Positions 4,400 to 34,893 of a DNA stretch of 36,193 nt are shown in pieces. The notes below the pieces were generated by a model, which saw nothing but the letters and a program-made list of their open reading frames with translations, searched no databases and had not been told where the DNA came from. How positions within the stretch are numbered: the stretch's first letter is position 1; each line of letters opens with the position of its first letter. The DNA is taken from the UHGV virus genome UHGV-0315046; one strand, given 5' to 3'. The translations under genes were made by a program, and so were the position numbers. The DNA is from a virus.

Positions 4400-4849
4400 T
4401 TAGTCAAACATAGTGTTTCTAAAGTCTCTCGCATACCCTGCTAACACTCTCATTCTATTATGATTGTTAGCAGACATGTGAGCTACAGGATGAAAAAGAG
4501 CAATCAATGAATACCTGTTCTCATCAAAAAGATTTTGTGCATAAACGAGAGCGGTATTGGATGTTTTATGCCACTGCAACTTTTGCGGTGTGCTGATATC
4601 TGTGCCATTTTTTATTGGCTCAAATTTATTTTCACCAATTGCTAAATGAAGGTGCATAAGACCTGCATCTTCAATATCAGGAGGACGATGATAAGAGGTG
4701 TCTCTGCCAAAATAGCTGGGCAACGTTCCCGTAGACTTGTAGATGATAAAATCATCTACAAGTGTTTGTTTTAAATCAGGAAACTCAACAAAAACCGGGG
4801 AGAAAAAATAGTCAAAACTATCCTGATTATATTCCACGGTTACTTGCAT
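4400..4849 (-). CDS. YafO-like toxin candidate (ribosome-dependent mRNA interferase family)
   Basis: 149-aa ORF. Motifs DFIIYKSTGTLPSYFGRD, MHLHLA, ALVYAQNLFDE and NNHNRM align with my recollection of E. coli YafO; not verified by search. AT-rich relative to flanking structural genes. Confidence 0.45.
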   Translation of the reverse strand: MQVTVEYNQDSFDYFFSPVFVEFPDLKQTLVDDFIIYKSTGTLPSYFGRDTSYHRPPDIEDAGLMHLHLAIGENKFEPIKNGTDISTPQKLQWHKTSNTALVYAQNLFDENRYSLIALFHPVAHMSANNHNRMRVLAGYARDFRNTMFD

Positions 4850-4857
4850 GTTTTACC

Positions 4858-5424
4858 TCAGTGGAAGTTACCAGAGTGAAACACACGAGTCCCGTGCTCA
4901 GCAAGCGCACGCAAACCAGCCATATCTACGGAACTATCAAAAACAACCGGAACACATGAGCGTTGTTTAATAAGACTATTCAGGTTAGTTACGGCAGATC
5001 TAGCATCAGCAACAACGATATAGATATCTCTTGCGATCTCTTTAAAATCAGCAGAAGCTTCTTTGAATACCGATTTCATTGCCCCTTCAAGTCCTCTCAA
5101 TTGATGCTCTATCAATCGAGACTTTTCTGGTTCAATGATAGACAACACATTGTCTACATTCTCATCGGTAGCGTTTGCAAGAACACGATAAGCGTATTTC
5201 AGCATTCGAGACAATTCTTTAATCGAAGACACCGCCTCATGAAGCTCATCATTAGCCCGTTCACTGCTGAATGAGGATTGATGGTAAGCGTGCTGAACGT
5301 TATCAGTAACAACCACCTCACAACTGAACGCAGAAGCTTGCTGTAATAGCAAACCTATTGCGACTCCAGCTTTGGCAGCGTTCAAGCTAAACATTTCATC
5401 AATCCCATTAGTCTCATTGCTCAT
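4858..5424 (-). CDS. Hypothetical protein, upstream partner of the YafO-like gene
   Basis: Start refined to MSNETNG..., preceded by AAGGAGG at ~6 nt. 188 aa, predicted mostly helical, no recognised motif. Stop lies 9 bp before the downstream gene start, same strand. Confidence 0.6.
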   Translation of the reverse strand: MSNETNGIDEMFSLNAAKAGVAIGLLLQQASAFSCEVVVTDNVQHAYHQSSFSSERANDELHEAVSSIKELSRMLKYAYRVLANATDENVDNVLSIIEPEKSRLIEHQLRGLEGAMKSVFKEASADFKEIARDIYIVVADARSAVTNLNSLIKQRSCVPVVFDSSVDMAGLRALAEHGTRVFHSGNFH

Positions 5425-5599
5425 ACAAACCTCCTTCTTATCGGAGATTATCAATAGCTATGTATCCATTGAATACACGCTATGCGCAGTAATTCTACGT
5501 CACGTGATATCATTATGCAACCACCGTTCTATCACCGACTAACTTTACTCCCACTCCTATACATCATCTGGTATCCTGCTCAAAACTAAGGAGGTTGGT

Positions 5600-20638: not shown

Positions 20639-21160
20639 TTAAATGATTTGCCAGTCTTCTGCTAGAACATCAGTCTGACTAGCCAGCCACGGTACTAATT
20701 TATCGTCCGCTGTTTTCATGGCGATATACGGAAGTTGTTTCGGAGATCGTTTCGATTCTCCATGCGTACCTTCAGGCAACTCAAAGACGCGACTGCAAAA
20801 GCAAGGCGTACTGCCAGTATGAACAGCCTCAGTGTACGGTTTAACGTATGCCAGCCACATACCCTTACCATTCCAGCCAGCACGAGCAACTTTATTCCCC
20901 AACTTGAGCGCTTCAATGGCAAGGCCGAAACTTAGCCCAGATACCGGACGATAAGCCTTTTCGAATACTTCTTTTGGACTCCAGCTAACGTAGCCATCAA
21001 AGCGATCGGTGTTAGGTTTTCCGCCATCCAGATATTCAACCAGATAGCCTTCGTCCTCGCCGTTTTCTCCGGCAGGAAGCTGCCAGCCACGAAAATCGTT
21101 ATATGCCTGTCTCGTCATCGGAAAGGCGTTAATCAGTTTTACGCCAATATGCTGGGTCAT
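20639..21160 (-). CDS. Two-domain hypothetical protein with DUF2829-like (Tad2-like) C-terminal half
   Basis: 173 aa; C-terminal half (FGLAIEALKLGNKVARAGWNGKGMWLAYVKP...LPYIAMKTADDKLVPWLASQTD) fits the DUF2829 pattern as I recall it; not verified. Confidence 0.5.
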   Translation of the reverse strand: MTQHIGVKLINAFPMTRQAYNDFRGWQLPAGENGEDEGYLVEYLDGGKPNTDRFDGYVSWSPKEVFEKAYRPVSGLSFGLAIEALKLGNKVARAGWNGKGMWLAYVKPYTEAVHTGSTPCFCSRVFELPEGTHGESKRSPKQLPYIAMKTADDKLVPWLASQTDVLAEDWQII

Positions 21161-22989: not shown

Positions 22990-23030
22990 TTGAGTCAAAT
23001 TTACCCAATTTTATTCAATAAGTCAATATC
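22990..23030 (-). promoter_or_regulatory. Late promoter PR-prime with overlapping Q-utilisation (qut) region
   Basis: Minus-strand -35 TTGACT (23021-23026) and -10 TAAATT (22998-23003) with 17-bp spacing, just downstream of Q. Confidence 0.65.
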
Positions 23031-23068: not shown

Positions 23069-23692
23069 CTAACGTGTGACCGCATTCAAAATGTTGTCTG
23101 CGATTGACTCTTCTTTGTGGCATTGCACCACCAGAGCGTCATACAGCGGCTTAACAGTGCGTGACCAGGTGGGTTGGGTAAGGTTTGGGATTAGCATCGT
23201 CACAGCGCGATATGCTGCGCTTGCTGGCATCCTTGAATAGCCGACGCCTTTGCATCTTCCGCACTCTTTCTCGACAACTCTCCCCCACAGCTCTGTTTTG
23301 GCAATATCAACCGCACGGCCTGTACCGTGGCAATCTCTGCATCTTGCCCCCGGCGTCGCGGCACTACGGCAATAATCCGCATAAGCGAATGTTGCGAGCA
23401 CTTGCAGTACCTTTGCCTTAGTATTTCCTTCAAGCTTTGCCACACCACGGTATTTCCCCGATACCTTGTGTGCAAATTGCATCAGATAGTTGATAGCCTT
23501 TTGTTTGTCGTTCTGGCTGAGTTCGTGCTTACCGCAGAATGCAGCCATACCGAATCCGGCTTGTGATTGCGCCATCCCCATAGCAGCCATCACATCAGTA
23601 CCGGAAAGAGAGTCAGAAGCCGTGGCCCGTGGTGAGTCGCTCATCATCGGGCTTTTTGGCGAATGAAATTTAGCTACGCTTTCGAGTCTCAT
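23069..23692 (-). CDS. Q: Late antiterminator Q (lambda type)
   Basis: 207 aa; appears essentially identical to lambda Q as recalled (MRLESVAKFHSPKSPMMSDSPRATASDSLSGTDVMAAMGMAQSQAGFGMAAFCGKHE...). Confidence 0.9.
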   Translation of the reverse strand: MRLESVAKFHSPKSPMMSDSPRATASDSLSGTDVMAAMGMAQSQAGFGMAAFCGKHELSQNDKQKAINYLMQFAHKVSGKYRGVAKLEGNTKAKVLQVLATFAYADYCRSAATPGARCRDCHGTGRAVDIAKTELWGRVVEKECGRCKGVGYSRMPASAAYRAVTMLIPNLTQPTWSRTVKPLYDALVVQCHKEESIADNILNAVTR

Positions 23693-23877
23693 GGCCTTCC
23701 CCTTTTTCCCTGTTTGACCATCAGGACGCCGTTAACTATTACGTGACGCTCGACTTTACTGTCTCGGTTGTACTTGAGCACTGTTCCTCTTGCGCAGGAA
23801 AGCATCCTTGCCACTTCGGTCTGATTGCCTCGTGTCTGGATAAGAAGCTCTGGTATCGTTTGAATTGTGGCGTTCAT
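23689..23877 (-). CDS. ninH: NinH-like small DNA-binding protein
   Basis: 62 aa; motif GNQTEVARMLSCARGTVLKY...IVNGVLMV resembles lambda NinH; sits immediately upstream of Q. Confidence 0.65.
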   Translation of the reverse strand: MNATIQTIPELLIQTRGNQTEVARMLSCARGTVLKYNRDSKVERHVIVNGVLMVKQGKRGRP

Positions 23878-24236
23878 GCGTTCTCCAGTTCGGTGATTTT
23901 TATTCCAAGCCTTCCGCCTGGTACTTTCACGCCACGAATTACGCGAATGTCATCGAATTGCTCGTCGTCTTCCGCAAATCCGGCGTGGATAAGGGAGTCG
24001 AGTAAACCTTTCAGGATGTTATCGAGGTCGCGGCGGCGGGAGTCTGGAACGTCTGCGATGACTTTGATGCGGAGTCGTGATTTGGTGAAAATGTCTAACT
24101 TGAGTTGGCGGATGATTTGCTGAACGTCTTTTCGGTATTTCTGGCCTTTATCGCTGATGTAGTATTGACTCCCCCGTCTTCGCCAGTAGGTATTCACCGA
24201 CGGCGGGTATGGAAGCACAAACTGATATTCGTTCAT
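23874..24236 (-). CDS. rusA: RusA-family Holliday junction resolvase
   Basis: 120 aa; motifs PPSVNTYW, DVPDSRRRDLDN and GGRLGIKITELE match the RusA family. Confidence 0.85.
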   Translation of the reverse strand: MNEYQFVLPYPPSVNTYWRRRGSQYYISDKGQKYRKDVQQIIRQLKLDIFTKSRLRIKVIADVPDSRRRDLDNILKGLLDSLIHAGFAEDDEQFDDIRVIRGVKVPGGRLGIKITELENA

Positions 24237-24523
24237 GGCTTAATCTTCCCCTCCTTCAGCAGTATCGCCTGCGTCCTGATCACGCCTTCGAGGTGGTAAA
24301 GTCTGGCGTCTTTGTTGTCGAGAATCATTGTGCGTCGGTCGATTTCATCGTGACACGCGCTACAAGCCCATGCGCCGATCAGGTCGTCAGGCTTCATTCC
24401 AGTTCCGCAAATTCCAGCCATCCGGTAATGTGCCAGAACTGTAGTTTCAGGATTACCATTGCATACGCCGTAAATACGTACCTGGCATTCTCTGCCGCGC
24501 GCTTCTTTGCGTAGATTAGCCAT
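24233..24523 (-). CDS. ybcO: YbcO-like (DUF1364) putative nuclease
   Basis: 96 aa, several conserved Cys/His (CQVRIYGVC...HY...C...CSACHDEID); same size and RusA-adjacent position as DLP12 YbcO. Confidence 0.55.
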   Translation of the reverse strand: MANLRKEARGRECQVRIYGVCNGNPETTVLAHYRMAGICGTGMKPDDLIGAWACSACHDEIDRRTMILDNKDARLYHLEGVIRTQAILLKEGKIKP

Positions 24524-24728
24524 TTACCTTCCCTCGCAATTGAAGAATTGACTGAAGGTCTTTTTTAATAAATATGCGAGTGCGGATTGAGCAGTAGTTT
24601 TCCTTCATTCTGGCGTAGTAATAGTCCTTTCGTTGTTTAAGCTTGTTGGCATCCGCTGTCATCCAGTCTTTTACAGCAAACTTAATTAACCAGCGGTGGC
24701 AGAGATACCATTTCAGGTAATCACTCAT
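24516..24728 (-). CDS. Hypothetical nin-region protein
   Basis: 70-aa basic ORF overlapping neighbours by a few nt on both sides; family not recognised. Confidence 0.45.
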   Translation of the reverse strand: MSDYLKWYLCHRWLIKFAVKDWMTADANKLKQRKDYYYARMKENYCSIRTRIFIKKDLQSILQLRGKVNG

Positions 24729-24897
24729 CGTCTTCTTCCTCGTACATTGAGCTATTCGGATCGCTCATCAGTTCTGCGCAGCAATCTGAGCACACGTGAA
24801 CTTCCAGCACATGCAGCTTCTGACCGCAGTTAGCGCACGTTAAAGCCCGCTCGACGCTTTCTTTCTGGTATTGAATGGATTGGGATGGGCTAAGCAT
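24721..24897 (-). CDS. Small zinc-ribbon ORF (NinD-like by position), absent from the supplied ORF track because under 60 aa
   Basis: Hand-translated 58 aa: MLSPSQSIQYQKESVERALTCANCGQKLHVLEVHVCSDCCAELMSDPNSSMYEEEDDE; CxxC...CxxCC motif; start 2 nt after the upstream stop, stop overlaps the next gene start. Confidence 0.4.
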   Translation of the reverse strand: MLSPSQSIQYQKESVERALTCANCGQKLHVLEVHVCSDCCAELMSDPNSSMYEEEDDE

Positions 24898-25249
24898 TAT
24901 TGGCGTCCTGCATCATGAGAAAGACAATCATGGCAGCGCGGAGTGGGTTTTCATCTTGAGTCATATGATATGGGGTACTATCACTGCCAACTTTTCTATG
25001 CGCTGCCTTCCATAATCCATTTTCTGGCGCTGGAATAATGCCAATTCTGTTCTCTACGATAATCGGCTCTGCGTCTGATGGGCTTTTACAGTAATCAACC
25101 GTTTTTATTGCATAACCAGTTTCGTCATCCCACTCAACACCAACGATTGATGTTCCCAACTTTGCGATTTCGCAATCTTCGGGAGCAAATCCACAGCAAA
25201 TTGCCACTCGCTTGTTAATTTCAAAATCACTTAACTGTGAATAATCCAT
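24890..25249 (-). CDS. Hypothetical nin-region protein
   Basis: Start refined to MDYSQLSDFEINKR with GAGGAA 7 nt upstream; 119 aa; family not recognised. Confidence 0.5.
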   Translation of the reverse strand: MDYSQLSDFEINKRVAICCGFAPEDCEIAKLGTSIVGVEWDDETGYAIKTVDYCKSPSDAEPIIVENRIGIIPAPENGLWKAAHRKVGSDSTPYHMTQDENPLRAAMIVFLMMQDANNA

Positions 25250-25424
25250 TGTCATTTCCTCGCACGATGTCTTAGCCACCGGATATCCCACAGGTGAGCC
25301 GTGTAGTTGAAGGTTTTTACGTCAGATTCTTTTGGGATTGGCTTGCGTTTATTTCTGGAGCGTTTCGTTGGAAGGTATTTGCAGTTTTCGCAGATGATGT
25401 CGGTGAAACTTCGTCGCTGTCGTC

Positions 25425-25952
25425 TCATGCCGCCCTCCTGACGCCCTGCCCGATCGCCATCAATGCCGCTTTGGATACGGTAGTAAACATCCGTCTAGGA
25501 CTGATGAACGGTCGCCAAATCAGCAGCATTGAGCCTTTACTGTTTCCCTTCTTCTCCAGCCCCGTCGATGGTTCGATAAAATTAATCCGTCCATCAGTGA
25601 TAATACGAACTTCGTCAACACTCTCCAGAGCCTTGCTGAACCATCCGACAGACATATCCTCTGGCACAAGCATCACTACCGTCTGGCGCTGTTGTATGCA
25701 CTGCTCAGCGGCTTTTTCCACCCACGGCCTGATATTGCTGTACGGTGGGTTATTCCAGATTGCACCGTGGCTTATCCACTCAGAATTTAGCGCGTCGTCA
25801 GCCTCAGTTAGCCAGTGAGCGCACAGAGCATTTTTGTCGCTCGCTGCCGAATCCAGCCAGAATCCAAACTCAATATCCAGTGCATCAAAAAGCCAAAGCG
25901 GCGTTTGCCAGCAGTCCTTGTCGTGTGCTGGCGTATTTGATTTGATAGTCAT
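25425..25952 (-). CDS. Orphan phage Dam-type DNA N6-adenine methyltransferase
   Basis: Start refined to [22 protein letters not shown]-coupled to the ninB stop. Catalytic NPPY motif ([14 protein letters not shown]); no adjacent restriction endonuclease gene. Confidence 0.8.
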
Positions 25953-26389
25953 GCAGCCCGATCTCCCCATCGCGCTTTCCATTCGAGAGCCAGTCGCGCT
26001 TCGTCTGACCACTTAACGCCACGATCTGTACCGAATGCCTGTATAAGCTCTAATAGCTCCGCAAATTCGCCTACACGCATCCTGCTGGTTGACTGGCCTA
26101 TTACCACAAAGCCATTCCCGGCAAGGTTAGGAACAACATCCTGCTGCTTTAATGCTGCGGTAAACACACACTTCCAGCTTTCTGCATCCAGCCAGCGACC
26201 ATGCCATTCAACCTGACGAGAGACGTCACCTAAGCAGGCCCATAGCTTCCTGTTTTGGTCTAAGCTGCGGTTGCGCTCCTGAATGATCACTACGATTGGC
26301 TTGGTTGGGTCTGGAAGAATTTGCTGCACCGCGTGAATAGCGTTTTGCTGATGTGCTGGGGATCGAATTTCAAAGGTTAGTTTTTTCAT
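25949..26389 (-). CDS. ninB: NinB recombination protein
   Basis: Start at MKKLTFEIRSPAHQQNAIHAVQQILPDPTKPIVV...; appears near-identical to lambda NinB (146 aa) as recalled. Confidence 0.85.
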   Translation of the reverse strand: MKKLTFEIRSPAHQQNAIHAVQQILPDPTKPIVVIIQERNRSLDQNRKLWACLGDVSRQVEWHGRWLDAESWKCVFTAALKQQDVVPNLAGNGFVVIGQSTSRMRVGEFAELLELIQAFGTDRGVKWSDEARLALEWKARWGDRAA

Positions 26390-26465
26390 GACTTCCCTCT
26401 CCCCCAAATAAAAAGGCCTGCGATTACCAGCAGGCCTGTTATTATCTCAGTGATGTAGACGGTCA

Positions 26466-27902
26466 TCAGAATCCTCCTTTCTTCTTGGACTGCGGTTCCT
26501 CGCGTTCACGTCGGCGCATTTCAGCAGACTGTTGGTCTGTGTCATAAATAGCGCCATTTGCCTGAATGCAATACACCGTGCCGGTATTGCCATGACGATT
26601 GAGACGAAGGATTAGTTCGGTTTCACCAGGAGGAACGCTGTCATCAAAAGCACCTTCACGATGGATCCCGACCCAATAATCGCAATCCTGTTCAATCTGC
26701 CCTGTATCTCGCGAGTCACTTGGTAATGGGCGTTTATTGGTTCGGCTTTCCAATGCGCGGTTAAGCTGTGTCAGAAGCACAACAACGCAATCAAGCTCTT
26801 TGGCAAGGTTCTTCAGTCCTTTGGTGATCATGCCGTAAGCAAGGTCGTTGCGATCGGCCTTCTCAGCGGTCATTAGTGTCAGGTAATCGACCAGAATCAT
26901 GCCAACACATCCTTTTTCTCGCTTGATTCGACGGCTTTCGCTAACGATTTGAGCCAGAGATAATCCCGGCGTGTCGTCGATGTAAAGCAGGTCGATTTCA
27001 CTCAAACGATTAGCTGTTTCGATCGCCCTGTTGAAGTCACCATCGTAATCACCCTGATAGCCGTCATCAGCGTCACTTGTCGCCGGAAGGTAAAAAATAT
27101 TCGGGTTAACACCTGACTTCTGTCCCACCAGTTTTTCCAGTATCTGATCACCTGGCATTTCAAGGCTGAACATCAGAGCGGGCTTTTTCTCATGCACTGC
27201 GCAATTGATTGCCATCTGGCTGTATAGCGTCGTTTTCCCCATCTTAGGGCGAGCGCCAATGACAAACAGAGAGCCTTTCACCAGACCTTTCGGTGACAGC
27301 ATCCTGTCCAGCGATGGGATCCCTGTGCTCATTCCTCGTTGTTCGCCTGACGGGTCAAATCGCTTCTCAAGGTCGCTAACCCAGTCTTCCATGACCTCAC
27401 CAAATGAGCGAAGGCCGCGACGCGATCCGGTTTTTGCATGGTCTGTCAGTTGCGTGAAAATCGCCTGAATAGCTTCGTACTTCTGCGTCGCAGTCATTCC
27501 GTTGCGGGAATAGAGCAATTCCGTCGCTTCAGTCATGCGGTTGATGGCGTAGCGTTCCATTGCGGTTTCGCGAACCTGCATTGCATAGGCAACGATGTTT
27601 GCGGCGCTTGGCGTGTTCTTTGCGATCTCAGCGATATAAGCAAAACCGCCAACAGACGCCGTTAACGATTTACGCTCCAGTTCATCGAAAAGCGTCAGGC
27701 CATCTACTGGCTTTTGCTCCCGGTGCATTCTGGTTATTTCTTCGAAAATGATTTTGTGTGGTCGGCTGTAAAATGAATCAGGCTTCAGCATCGCCAGAAC
27801 TTTCTGGACGCGCTCACTGCTGTCATCATCCAGAAGCAATCCACCAATCACCGCCTGCTCTGCCTCGATGCTATGGGGCGGCGCATAAAAATTATCGGTC
27901 AT
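26466..27902 (-). CDS. Replicative DNA helicase (DnaB family; P22 gene 12 analogue)
   Basis: Start refined to MTDNFYAPPHSIEAEQAVIGGLL (DnaB N-terminal signature); Walker A GARPKMGKTT; 478 aa. Confidence 0.9.
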   Translation of the reverse strand: MTDNFYAPPHSIEAEQAVIGGLLLDDDSSERVQKVLAMLKPDSFYSRPHKIIFEEITRMHREQKPVDGLTLFDELERKSLTASVGGFAYIAEIAKNTPSAANIVAYAMQVRETAMERYAINRMTEATELLYSRNGMTATQKYEAIQAIFTQLTDHAKTGSRRGLRSFGEVMEDWVSDLEKRFDPSGEQRGMSTGIPSLDRMLSPKGLVKGSLFVIGARPKMGKTTLYSQMAINCAVHEKKPALMFSLEMPGDQILEKLVGQKSGVNPNIFYLPATSDADDGYQGDYDGDFNRAIETANRLSEIDLLYIDDTPGLSLAQIVSESRRIKREKGCVGMILVDYLTLMTAEKADRNDLAYGMITKGLKNLAKELDCVVVLLTQLNRALESRTNKRPLPSDSRDTGQIEQDCDYWVGIHREGAFDDSVPPGETELILRLNRHGNTGTVYCIQANGAIYDTDQQSAEMRRREREEPQSKKKGGF

Positions 27903-32891: not shown

Positions 32892-33134
32892 ATGAGCGAA
32901 TTTAAAGGAACTCCCGGTCCGTGGTTTTGGGATGAAGAGGGCTTGGGAAACAAGCATCACATAGTCTTTGGAAAGGGATATCCACTTGAAATGACGAGCA
33001 AGGAAAACAAGACTCTCATTACTGCAGCGCCTGAATTACTGGAAGCTCTGCAGGCTGTAGTTAGAGTAGCAGACCGTCAAACAGATGAGTTTGATATGGC
33101 TCGTTCCGCCATCGACAAGGCACTCGGCAAGTAA
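32892..33134 (+). CDS. Small hypothetical protein, paralog B of the EFKGTPG-W family
   Basis: 80 aa; see paralog A for shared motifs. Confidence 0.55.
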
Positions 33135-33213
33135 ACCACACCAAACACCCATTACCCCTACTCGTCCGGCTATCGCAGACGGGCAGCGCACAACCAAATT
33201 TCAGGAGCCTATT

Positions 33214-33510
33214 ATGGCTGCATATCTCGTTCAAGACCGTATCGAGGCGCAGAACTGGACGCGCCATTATCAGCAAATAGCCAGAGAAGAGCGTGAATCT
33301 GAACTGGCTGATGACCTCGAAAAAGGATTGCCACAGAGCAAACTGGAATCGTTGTGCGTTGACGAGTTGCAACGTCGCGGGGCCAGCAAGAATGCCATTT
33401 CCAAAGCATTCGATGATGACGTCGAGTTTCAGGAAAGGGCCGCTGAATTTATTCGCTACATGGCAGAGACAATTGCTCGCCACCAAACAGATATTGATGA
33501 GGGACAGTAA
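33214..33510 (+). CDS. gam: Gam (RecBCD inhibitor)
   Basis: Start refined to [41 protein letters not shown] with CAGGAGCC upstream; close to lambda GamS as recalled. Confidence 0.85.
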
Positions 33511-33512
33511 CG

Positions 33513-34427
33513 ATGAGCATGAGCATTGTTGAGTTCGTTAAACAGCAAGAGCCGCTCTTTGTTGGGGCGGTTACAGACCAATCAGTCACATGGGCTAAGG
33601 AAAGCCAGTTTGCAATTCAGTATTTCCAGAAAAATGATTACCTGGCTAAAACAGCACTGGCAAATCCGACCAGCGCACAGAACGCTATCATCAACGTTGC
33701 GGCGATCGGCATCACCTTAAACCCGGCCAGCAAACTGGCTTATCTGGTTCCGCGCGACGGCATGGTTTGCCTTGATATCAGCTATATGGGATTGCTCCAT
33801 ATTGCAATGGAGTCTGGTGTTATCTCATGGGGTCAGGCAAAACTTGTTCATGCTAACGATACCTATGAGTCAAACGGGCTTGATAAAGCACCAACCCATA
33901 AATACAACGCCTTCGGTGATCGTGGTGATATCGTTGGCGTTTACTGCACAGTTAAGACGCCAGCAGGTGATTATCTAACGGAAGAGATGAGTCTGGCTGA
34001 AATTGAGGCTGTAAGGAAAACAAGCAAGGCAGCATTCAGTGATAAAGGACCATGGGTAAATCACTGGAATGAGATGGCGCGAAAGACGGTCGTAAAGCGT
34101 GCAAGCAAGTATTGGCCTAAGGCATCACGTCTTGATAGTGCTATTCACGTACTAAACGAAGAAGAAGGTGTGTGGACTGAACCAGTTATGCCGCACAAAT
34201 CAGAGGAAGATATCCGCGAAGATGAACGGAAACGCCAGCAGGAAATTATGGAAAAAGCACAACTTCTTTGTGATGAAATGGCTCAGGCAGAAAACATGGA
34301 TGATTTGAAGCGATATTTTTCAGAAGCATATCGCCTGACATCTGGAATGAAATTGCAGCAGAACGTACAAGCCATATACATAGAATGCAAAGCGAAACTG
34401 GAGGTTGCCAGTGAGCAAACTGTATGA
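33513..34427 (+). CDS. recT: RecT-family single-strand annealing recombinase
   Basis: 304 aa; motif GPWVNHWNEMARKTVVKRASKYWP resembles the conserved RecT C-terminal motif; sits at the bet position after gam. Confidence 0.75.
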   Translation: MSMSIVEFVKQQEPLFVGAVTDQSVTWAKESQFAIQYFQKNDYLAKTALANPTSAQNAIINVAAIGITLNPASKLAYLVPRDGMVCLDISYMGLLHIAMESGVISWGQAKLVHANDTYESNGLDKAPTHKYNAFGDRGDIVGVYCTVKTPAGDYLTEEMSLAEIEAVRKTSKAAFSDKGPWVNHWNEMARKTVVKRASKYWPKASRLDSAIHVLNEEEGVWTEPVMPHKSEEDIREDERKRQQEIMEKAQLLCDEMAQAENMDDLKRYFSEAYRLTSGMKLQQNVQAIYIECKAKLEVASEQTV

Positions 34428-34893
34428 AATTGCCAATGAATACGCAAAATTGATGGATTCAGATTTAGAACCAGAGATGATTGCTGACACAATAGAAGGC
34501 ATGGAAGGAGAATTTACCGATAAAATAGAGCAACTTCTTTCCGTCATTAAAAATGAATCTGGTTATGCTGAACGCCTCAAGGAAGAGGCAAAGTCACTGA
34601 ATGAGCGAGCCGCAGTAATCCAAAATAAGATTGACAGCATCAAATCATATATAGCGTCATCGCTTGAAATGGTTGGCAAGAAAAATATTCGAGCAGGTAT
34701 TCACCAGGTAACAATCCGCAAACCGTCAGAAATTGTAGAAATAATCGACTCAAGCGCCCTTCCTCCTGAATACGTTGAGTTTGAAACGACAATTAAAGCC
34801 GACAAACTGGCAATCAAACACCAACTAAAAGCAGGAATAAATATCCCCGGCGCTCAACTCAAAGTTGGGAAACCTTCACTTCTTATCAAATAA
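34411..34893 (+). CDS. Hypothetical protein, possibly Sipho_Gp157-like
   Basis: GTG start preferred (GGAGG 7 nt upstream, overlaps the recT stop); coiled-coil-rich, about 160 aa; family call from memory only. Confidence 0.45.
   Translation: MSKLYEIANEYAKLMDSDLEPEMIADTIEGMEGEFTDKIEQLLSVIKNESGYAERLKEEAKSLNERAAVIQNKIDSIKSYIASSLEMVGKKNIRAGIHQVTIRKPSEIVEIIDSSALPPEYVEFETTIKADKLAIKHQLKAGINIPGAQLKVGKPSLLIK

Follow-up and report, generated by a model that had tools for sequence, protein, structure and literature searches.

Does the presence of a Holliday-junction resolvase, a putative nuclease and a DNA methyltransferase within one phage nin region define a special functional unit, and what is the methyltransferase for? 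The question is raised by a 36,193-nucleotide stretch of the virus genome UHGV-0315046 (hereafter the window), for which a preliminary description singled out this combination and named the methyltransferase as a candidate anti-restriction function. We find that the region, a lambda/P22-type early gene block, had been correctly read but is ordinary. It is very probably the delayed-early operon known as nin, here from an E. coli phage or prophage of the P22-like lambdoid type, and is built from standard modules that are freely exchanged.

Ten genes form a chain on the minus strand in the order ninB-dam-ninE-ninX-ninF-orf70-ybcO-rusA-ninH-Q, and at each of the nine junctions the neighbouring genes overlap by 4 or 8 nt. 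Between a DnaB-like helicase gene and ninB lies a tR2-like intrinsic terminator (26414..26437, minus strand) with an 8-bp stem containing 6 GC pairs, followed by TTTTTATTT; this element putatively marks the start of an N-dependent nin operon. The chain opens with ninB (25949..26389; ATG and TGA verified), which encodes an Orf-type recombination mediator of 146 amino acids (PF05772, E = 3.4e-53), and continues with the gene for a 175-residue N6-adenine DNA methyltransferase (25425..25952), ninE (25252..25428; 58 amino acids, PF05322, E = 4.2e-43) and ninX (24890..25255; P22 NinX/DUF2591, 121 amino acids, PF10765, E = 6.3e-22), whose ATG at 25255 forms an ATGA overlap with ninE. Then come ninF (24721..24897; 58 amino acids, PF05810, E = 8.1e-14) and orf70 (24516..24728), a gene of unknown function whose 70-residue product matches phrog_3973 (E = 2.3e-52, also of unknown function) and no Pfam family above its cut-off; a GNAT_C match of 18 bits, against a cut-off of 22.8, was set aside as chance. 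The genes ybcO (DUF1364; 24233..24523, 96 amino acids) and rusA (23874..24236, 120 amino acids) are followed by ninH (23689..23877; 62 amino acids, PF06322, E = 1.1e-23) and by the last member of the overlapping chain, the late-gene antiterminator gene Q (23069..23692; 207 amino acids, PF03589, E = 6e-58). The preliminary description had placed RusA, YbcO/DUF1364 and the methyltransferase within 23874–25952; the genes lie there, on the minus strand, and our domain searches agree with it on all three.

Just downstream of Q is a PR'-like late promoter (22998..23026, minus strand; TTGACT-17-TAAATT), and a PR'/qut site is annotated at the equivalent place in phage mEp043. No terminator-like site was found on the coding strand inside the gene chain. 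Transcription would start from PR, pass the tR2-like terminator through N antitermination and run through all ten genes, and from the start/stop overlaps we infer that the ten products would be made together, in lytic growth only. The window also encodes Gam and RecT.

This gene block is already known, since its order has been deposited for HK97 (NC_002167; ninB-methyltransferase-ninE-ninF-roi-DUF1364-rusA-ninH-Q) and for mEp043 (NC_019706), both of which have the same type of Q. Nucleotide identity to the nin regions of these phages is 96.6–97.1% over the shared parts. The window has ninX between ninE and ninF, a gene that HK97 and mEp043 lack. The orf70 gene is the same as mEp043 gp60 and fills the slot that roi occupies in HK97; in its virion genes the window resembles P22 rather than HK97. 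The whole 2.9 kb, ninX included, is colinear at 97.1–97.5% identity with several E. coli chromosomes, among them those of S56 and CU37RT-2, and of 5426 complete E. coli genomes, 2378 contain parts of it. HK97 and many E. coli prophages share this order, and the block is therefore unexceptional.

Residues 1–119 of the RusA protein align without gaps to residues 1–119 of E. coli RusA (PDB 1q8r, E = 2.8e-26), and the alignment is likewise gap-free to the solved mutant 2h8c, in which D70N is the sole difference from the wild type. The protein matches PF05866 (E = 1.1e-16; 62 bits, cut-off 22.8) and keeps D70, D72, K76 and D91 at the same positions; we take the three aspartates to be the catalytic acidic residues, with K76 in addition. 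The assignment as RusA is therefore upheld by family, colinearity and intact catalytic residues, and the protein is predicted to cleave Holliday junctions. With the strict NCBIfam model for E. coli RusA it scores 100 bits against 200, below the cut-off, and so represents a diverged allele.

YbcO answers to its earlier description as a DUF1364-like Cys/His protein. It matches PF07102 (E = 2.8e-44; 149.5 bits, cut-off 29.9), a model of 92 positions that takes in 90 of its 96 residues, as well as phrog_131, 'HNH endonuclease' (E = 1.1e-48), and its residues 1–95 match PDB 3g27 (E = 2.5e-39). We know of no member of the YbcO/DUF1364 family for which nuclease activity has been shown. C13, C21, H32, C54, C57 and H58 are identical in YbcO and 3g27, and by analogy with the fold class these Cys4/His residues may be zinc ligands or catalytic residues (PMC5714182). 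The family is classed as a His-Me finger (group 7) with RusA and Q as neighbours, and a NinG-like part in recombination has been suggested for it, its nuclease activity being only hypothesised (PMC5714182).

In the cryptic prophage DLP12 of E. coli K-12, ybcO and rusA are as long as in the window (291 and 363 nt), also overlap by 4 nt, and are likewise placed with ninE upstream and a Q-type antiterminator gene downstream. Judged by eye from the alignments, the window and DLP12 proteins are roughly 50% (RusA) and 70% (YbcO) identical. Both DLP12 proteins have been structurally solved (3g27 and 1q8r), and their key residues are conserved in the window. DLP12 is a defective prophage in which rusA is normally silent, whereas the ybcO-rusA genes of the window belong to an apparently intact operon. 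Phage 82 also carries this cassette.

YbcO and RusA had been said to sit where lambda has NinG, and this placement is correct. NinG/Rap of lambda occupies the same nin slot between ninF/roi and ninH, the NinG homologue of VT2-Sakai (nin204) lies between roi and ninH, and NinG is a single protein of 201–204 residues where YbcO and RusA are two small ones. NinG/Rap, a structure-specific endonuclease, acts on D-loops and Holliday junctions and is predicted to be a His-Me finger protein (PMC5714182). A tblastn search with VT2-Sakai NinG found no lambda-type NinG in the window, and none of the ten nin open reading frames matches PF05766 (NinG/Rap). Homology between YbcO and NinG was not detectable (BLASTP E = 0.35).

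NinG and RusA are strict alternatives: across 61 related viral contigs, NinG is present in 21 loci, RusA in 39 and the two together in none. YbcO is not recognisable in 18 of the 39 RusA loci, from which it follows that RusA does not need YbcO. The methyltransferase gene follows ninB in 40 loci and is absent from 21; loci with the gene include 12 with NinG and 11 with YbcO and RusA, compared with 9 and 10 of those that lack it (odds ratio ~0.8). Carriage of the methyltransferase is thus not associated with the YbcO/RusA cassette in the 61 loci, and the full set of YbcO, RusA and methyltransferase occurs in 11. Methyltransferase and resolvase type assort independently, and the idea that these three genes form a special combination is without meaning.

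For the methyltransferase, the open reading frame list gives a longer, GTG-started frame that reaches 26012. Starting at the ATG at 25952 yields the 175 residues seen in VT2-Sakai, and the HK97 gene is equally long (528 nt). This ATG (25952–25950) overlaps the ninB TGA (25951–25949) as ATGA, making the described coupling to ninB a literal one, and a 4-nt ATGA overlap also joins the gene to ninE. The call as an NPPY-type adenine methyltransferase is backed by PF05869 (217.5 bits, cut-off 28.1; profile positions 1–167 of 169), by the equivalog TIGR01712 'phage N-6-adenine-methyltransferase' (264.2 bits, cut-off 97.05) and by NPPY at residues 68–71. Across 24 homologues of 60–86% identity, N68, P69, P70, Y71, T17, P18, L33, D34 and A36 are invariant and an N-terminal W-x-T-P is conserved. 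We take NPPY to be catalytic motif IV and L-D-x-A-A to be the AdoMet-binding motif. The enzyme is minimal, with no separate target-recognition domain in its 175 residues. The structural model is of moderate confidence only (pLDDT 75, with residues 33–41 below 50). It shares 174 of 175 residues (99.4%) with VT2-Sakai orf32, the conservative I60V being the sole change, and is 100% identical to the copy in phage Nil2; 244 phage records hold it at 95% identity or above, and the family extends to 1901 phage records from many hosts and genera.

The methyltransferase was described as having no cognate endonuclease. No restriction endonuclease was found in the window by Pfam, PHROGs and PADLOC scans of 20 or more non-structural open reading frames, the scans taking in frames of at least 90 amino acids that match some family. 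This supports orphan status and rules out a hidden restriction partner among the frames scanned. The best PADLOC models for the protein are themselves 'orphan methyltransferase' (oMTase), and in all 40 loci that carry it the gene lies between ninB and ninE, in otherwise varied surroundings.

VT2-Sakai orf32 is taken to be M.EcoVT2Dam, which its position and annotation fit; on this understanding, M.EcoVT2Dam has the same length, the same slot between ninB and ninE and the same overlapping codons as the window enzyme, although the Stx phage that carries it has NinG in place of YbcO and RusA. M.EcoVT2Dam is reported as GATC-specific in PMC6602927, which cites Radlinska & Bujnicki (2001). Given the near-identity to orf32, the phage methyltransferase probably targets the adenine of GATC. 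The specificity of M.EcoVT2Dam was characterised after cloning and overexpression, and overproduced Dam-like enzymes can methylate off target (PMC10810198). No sequence homology was found to enzymes of the E. coli type (Dam, DpnM, T4 Dam; alpha class, PF02086). With E. coli Dam and T4 Dam the phage enzyme has in common the reported GATC target, N6-adenine methylation and a (D/N)PP(Y/W) catalytic motif.

GATC is already methylated by the Dam enzyme of the E. coli host (PMC6602927), and the virion DNA of P22 and lambda is left under-methylated by host Dam (PMC8022706). The phage enzyme would most likely serve to complete the methylation of GATC in fast-replicating phage DNA, on which host Dam would be limiting. 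The packaged genomes would in that case be methylated in full, and so shielded both from Dam-sensitive restriction at sites that overlap GATC and from MutH cutting.

GATC sites are strongly depleted in the window (75 observed, 172 expected), and across the window and related loci the ratio of observed to expected sites is 0.44–0.55. If the methyltransferase removed the cost of GATC sites, a relaxed avoidance might be expected in its carriers, yet the window is still depleted. The ratio is 0.55 in loci with the methyltransferase and 0.46 in those without (p = 0.009), a difference that is due to one clonal Stx-type group and falls to p = 0.16 without it. As the loci are related and mosaic, this comparison is a weak test in either direction.

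Of the other readings of the methyltransferase, the classical one, that it chiefly guards incoming phage DNA from the restriction enzymes of new hosts, is possible but doubtful. It draws on the confirmed orphan status, on the breadth of the family across hosts and on the way the gene appears to go with the early lytic genes, ahead of packaging. Against this reading, methylation of GATC blocks only those enzymes that recognise GATC itself or a site overlapping it. In its favour, orphan methyltransferases of lactococcal phages are described as protective against restriction (PMC4190342). In E. coli, however, the predicted GATC target already carries Dam methylation (PMC6602927), so that protection would be limited to completing partial methylation (PMC8022706) and the gain would be that of full over partial modification. 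The anti-restriction proposal thus stands in part: it is plausible for an orphan enzyme, but it lacks specific support because the target is a site that host Dam already methylates.

It is less likely that the enzyme acts as a mismatch-repair shield or recombination helper, with full GATC methylation stopping MutH cutting and permitting recombination between diverged lambdoid genomes, which would explain its linkage to ninB. The translational coupling to ninB, with ybcO and rusA in the same operon, fits this reading, as does the GATC depletion of the window and related loci. Such depletion has reportedly been ascribed to an attack by MutHLS on phage DNA that is under-methylated (Deschavanne & Radman 1991). 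The under-methylation of virion DNA by host Dam (PMC8022706) also agrees with it. Against it, the methyltransferase assorts independently of resolvase type, and carriage brings no robust relaxation of GATC avoidance. Phages that infect many further hosts and genera also carry the gene, so its link to the recombination genes may reflect only position. Topping up of GATC methylation is retained as the likeliest role.

YbcO, as a putative nuclease, forms with RusA a conserved two-gene cassette that would replace NinG/Rap and complete the processing of recombination intermediates produced by the phage functions Gam, RecT and NinB. Rather improbably, YbcO could instead be an HNH endonuclease of the selfish or homing kind, or else act as a regulator, with no part in recombination alongside RusA. 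The copies in HK97 and mEp043 are labelled just 'HNH endonuclease' by NCBI, 18 of the 39 RusA loci do without YbcO and its nuclease activity is a hypothesis (PMC5714182), all of which leave room for such a function. However, the 96-residue protein is essentially one small His-Me-finger domain, and its gene is fixed directly upstream of rusA, with the 4-nt overlap kept between this phage and DLP12 even though ~30% of YbcO and about half of RusA residues differ. Moreover, in the 61 loci YbcO never occurs with NinG and never without RusA. These features favour the two-gene cassette.

A more ambitious proposal, which we consider very unlikely, treats the nin operon as an integrated unit for recombination under cover, in which the methyltransferase, coupled in translation to NinB, blinds MutHLS rather than restriction enzymes to phage DNA that is replicating and recombining, while YbcO, as a putative nuclease of branched DNA, and RusA split the two activities of NinG/Rap between them. 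If true, the homeologous recombination behind lambdoid mosaicism would be directly favoured by a methyltransferase gene. Least probable of all is a misannotated specificity, the true substrate being other than GATC in double-stranded DNA (RNA, for instance, DNA in single-stranded form or a looser motif) and a partner protein perhaps being involved: a 175-residue enzyme with no recognition domain would be compatible with this, but the T1 and HP1 members of the PF05869 family are also GATC methylases, M.EcoVT2Dam is itself reported to target GATC, and no partner is conserved, as 21 of 61 loci have ninB and ninE but lack the methyltransferase. The precedent for such an error, a Stx-phage 'GATC Dam' that turned out to methylate 16S rRNA and to need a partner, belongs to another family (MT-A70, with a DPPW motif, not PF05869), and identity with that protein is ruled out, as it is gp5 and is encoded elsewhere (PMC10810198).

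The discovery value of the locus is small, as the methyltransferase and RusA have near-relatives that are characterised or solved, and its main use lies in correct annotation. YbcO/DUF1364 is a protein of very many E. coli prophages, with a solved structure (3g27) and a nuclease activity that is so far a hypothesis (PMC5714182). For the lambdoid phages at large, the locus is a reminder that nin modules assort independently.

The nin part of the window has the minus strand as its coding strand, where ten ORFs in a row, assigned by Pfam and with coordinates given for ATG starts, run from ninB (25949–26389; NinB, E 3.4e-53) through the methyltransferase gene (25425–25952; PF05869 'Dam' N6-adenine methyltransferase, E 1.2e-64), ninE (25252–25428; NinE), ninX (24890–25255; NinX), ninF (24721–24897; NinF), orf70 (24516–24728), ybcO (24233–24523; YbcO/DUF1364, E 2.8e-44), rusA (23874–24236; RusA, E 1.1e-16) and ninH (23689–23877; NinH) to the antiterminator gene Q (23069–23692). 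All junctions are start/stop overlaps of 4 nt (ATGA) or 8 nt. The three genes highlighted in the preliminary description (RusA, a YbcO-like protein and an NPPY methyltransferase) are present, with Pfam matches at E 1.1e-16 or better, and its limits are exact, 23874 being the rusA stop and 25952 the methyltransferase ATG. The coupling to ninB that it described is literal, since this ATG overlaps the ninB TGA. The 70-aa orf70 product lacks a Pfam family and belongs to phrog_3973, of unknown function; the gene occupies the slot of roi in phage HK97, overlaps each neighbour by 8 nt and has gp60 of phage mEp043 as its counterpart. Between ninB and the DnaB-like helicase gene there is a strong terminator-like hairpin with a T-run after it (26437–26414, minus strand), no terminator-like site was found on the coding strand within the chain, and a TTGACT-17-TAAATT promoter lies downstream of Q, which is the layout of a classical N-dependent nin operon.

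The earlier interpretation of these genes is largely correct, but their combination is not unusual: the same arrangement has been recorded before and occurs often. HK97 has the order ninB-methyltransferase-ninE-ninF-roi-DUF1364-rusA-ninH-Q, and mEp043 follows it except that the 70-aa ORF replaces roi. The cryptic prophage DLP12 of E. coli K-12 carries ninE-ybcO-rusA-ylcG-quuD, its ybcO and rusA having the same lengths and 4-nt overlap as those of the window. The full 2.9 kb (23600–26500), including ninX, is colinear in several E. coli chromosomes at 97.1–97.5% identity; at least 80% of it is present in 101 genomes, and parts occur in 2,378 of 5,426 complete E. coli genomes. No match of at least 99% over most of this segment was found in phage records or those 5,426 genomes. 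Because the best full-length match is 97.5% whereas single genes are 99–100% identical to known copies, the exact mosaic appears to be absent from these collections.

We typed the genes after NinB in 80 IMG/VR loci with a 99%-identical NinB, restricting counts to the 61 in which the downstream sequence reaches 4.5 kb or more. In 40 of these ninB is followed by the methyltransferase gene; 21 have NinG and 39 have RusA, and none has both. Methyltransferase presence is independent of resolvase type (12 NinG and 11 YbcO–RusA loci with the methyltransferase, 9 and 10 without), and the combination of methyltransferase, YbcO and RusA is found in 11/61 loci. The nin-region genes are modules that reassort freely.

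The 175-aa methyltransferase scores 264 bits with the NCBIfam equivalog model TIGR01712, above the cut-off of 97, and its NPPY motif (residues 68–71) is invariant in 24 homologues. It is 100% identical to the copy in phage Nil2 and shares 174/175 residues with orf32 of the Stx2 phage VT2-Sakai. We take orf32 to be M.EcoVT2Dam on the grounds that, within the stretch of VT2-Sakai retrieved, it is the gene with a DNA-methylase-like annotation; M.EcoVT2Dam is reported to target GATC (PMC6602927, citing Radlinska & Bujnicki 2001). From this similarity we infer that the window's enzyme is a GATC methylase, and its 99–100% identity to widespread copies and to orf32 suggests that inactivity is unlikely. 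A different enzyme from a Stx phage, though annotated as a GATC Dam, was shown to be a 16S rRNA methyltransferase needing a partner subunit (PMC10810198). It is of the MT-A70/DPPW type and its gene lies in another part of the phage, so this finding is not transferable to the present gene, but it does warn about specificities derived from overexpression. Many database entries show the methyltransferase fused to NinE, NinB, RusA or CII domains (P0001, P0005, P0011, P0013, P0023 and others); these are probably not true fusions but gene-calling or assembly artefacts associated with the start/stop overlaps and with mosaic junctions.

The label 'orphan' holds: Pfam, PHROGs and PADLOC detected no restriction endonuclease family in the window's non-structural ORFs, the top PADLOC models are 'orphan methyltransferase', and ninB and ninE stay its neighbours across varied genomes. 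A restriction partner nearby, named in the preliminary description as evidence against its reading, was sought among these ORFs and not found. Because host Dam already methylates GATC (PMC6602927) but lags behind phage replication, with P22 and lambda virion DNA under-methylated (PMC8022706), the most economical mechanism is that the enzyme would top up GATC methylation in lytic growth. Possible benefits are shielding from Dam-sensitive restriction at GATC-overlapping sites and shielding from MutH. GATC depletion of enterobacterial phages has been attributed to MutHLS pressure. GATC is strongly depleted in the whole window (75 observed against 172 expected by a second-order estimate; observed/expected 0.44), on a par with CTAG and despite the window's own putative GATC methylase. 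Related loci have ratios of 0.46–0.55, and the depletion is not robustly relaxed in those with the methyltransferase.

The window represents a P22-like lambdoid phage or prophage, with genes for a P22 head-binding tailspike, a P22-type antirepressor, CII, an S24/HTH repressor, Gam, RecT, a DnaB-type helicase, a gp3 small terminase and N-like and O-like proteins. Phages E212, Kapi1 and CUS-3 match its virion genes at 92–95%. Between the Rz lysis and small terminase genes, a 173-aa ORF (20639–21160, minus strand) with a Tad2-like domain (Thoeris anti-defence 2, PF11195; E 2e-25, residues 77–173) and no NCBIfam match is a candidate anti-defence gene. A low-GC segment (4400–5454, minus strand; 36–43% against about 50% elsewhere), between the antirepressor/tailspike and DNA-injection genes, encodes a 149-aa YafO-like type II toxin (PF13957, E 3.4e-22, under the NCBIfam cut-off) and, immediately upstream, a 198-aa protein of unknown function (phrog_8416). 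Together the two resemble a moron and may be a toxin–antitoxin or defence pair. The early-left recombination module (33085–34893, plus strand) consists of Gam, RecT and Sipho_Gp157, in that order; in the ORFs scanned we recognised neither a lambda-type Exo/Beta pair nor an exonuclease resembling RecE.

The RusA of the window can be aligned without gaps to E. coli RusA (1q8r; E 2.8e-26) and retains D70, D72, D91 and K76. YbcO shares about 70% of its residues with the DLP12 protein in PDB 3g27 (E 2.5e-39), including the four Cys and two His. DUF1364 has been classed as a His-Me finger family with RusA and Q as usual neighbours, and a NinG-like recombination role has been proposed for it, with no activity reported (PMC5714182). 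The NinG slot of the window is filled by a small His-Me-finger protein and a dedicated junction resolvase, and no sequence similarity is detectable between YbcO and NinG. We infer that the YbcO–RusA cassette stands in functionally for NinG; it would act on intermediates from the phage Gam, RecT and NinB functions. Of the 39 RusA loci, 21 have YbcO ahead of RusA and 18 lack it, so RusA can evidently work without YbcO.
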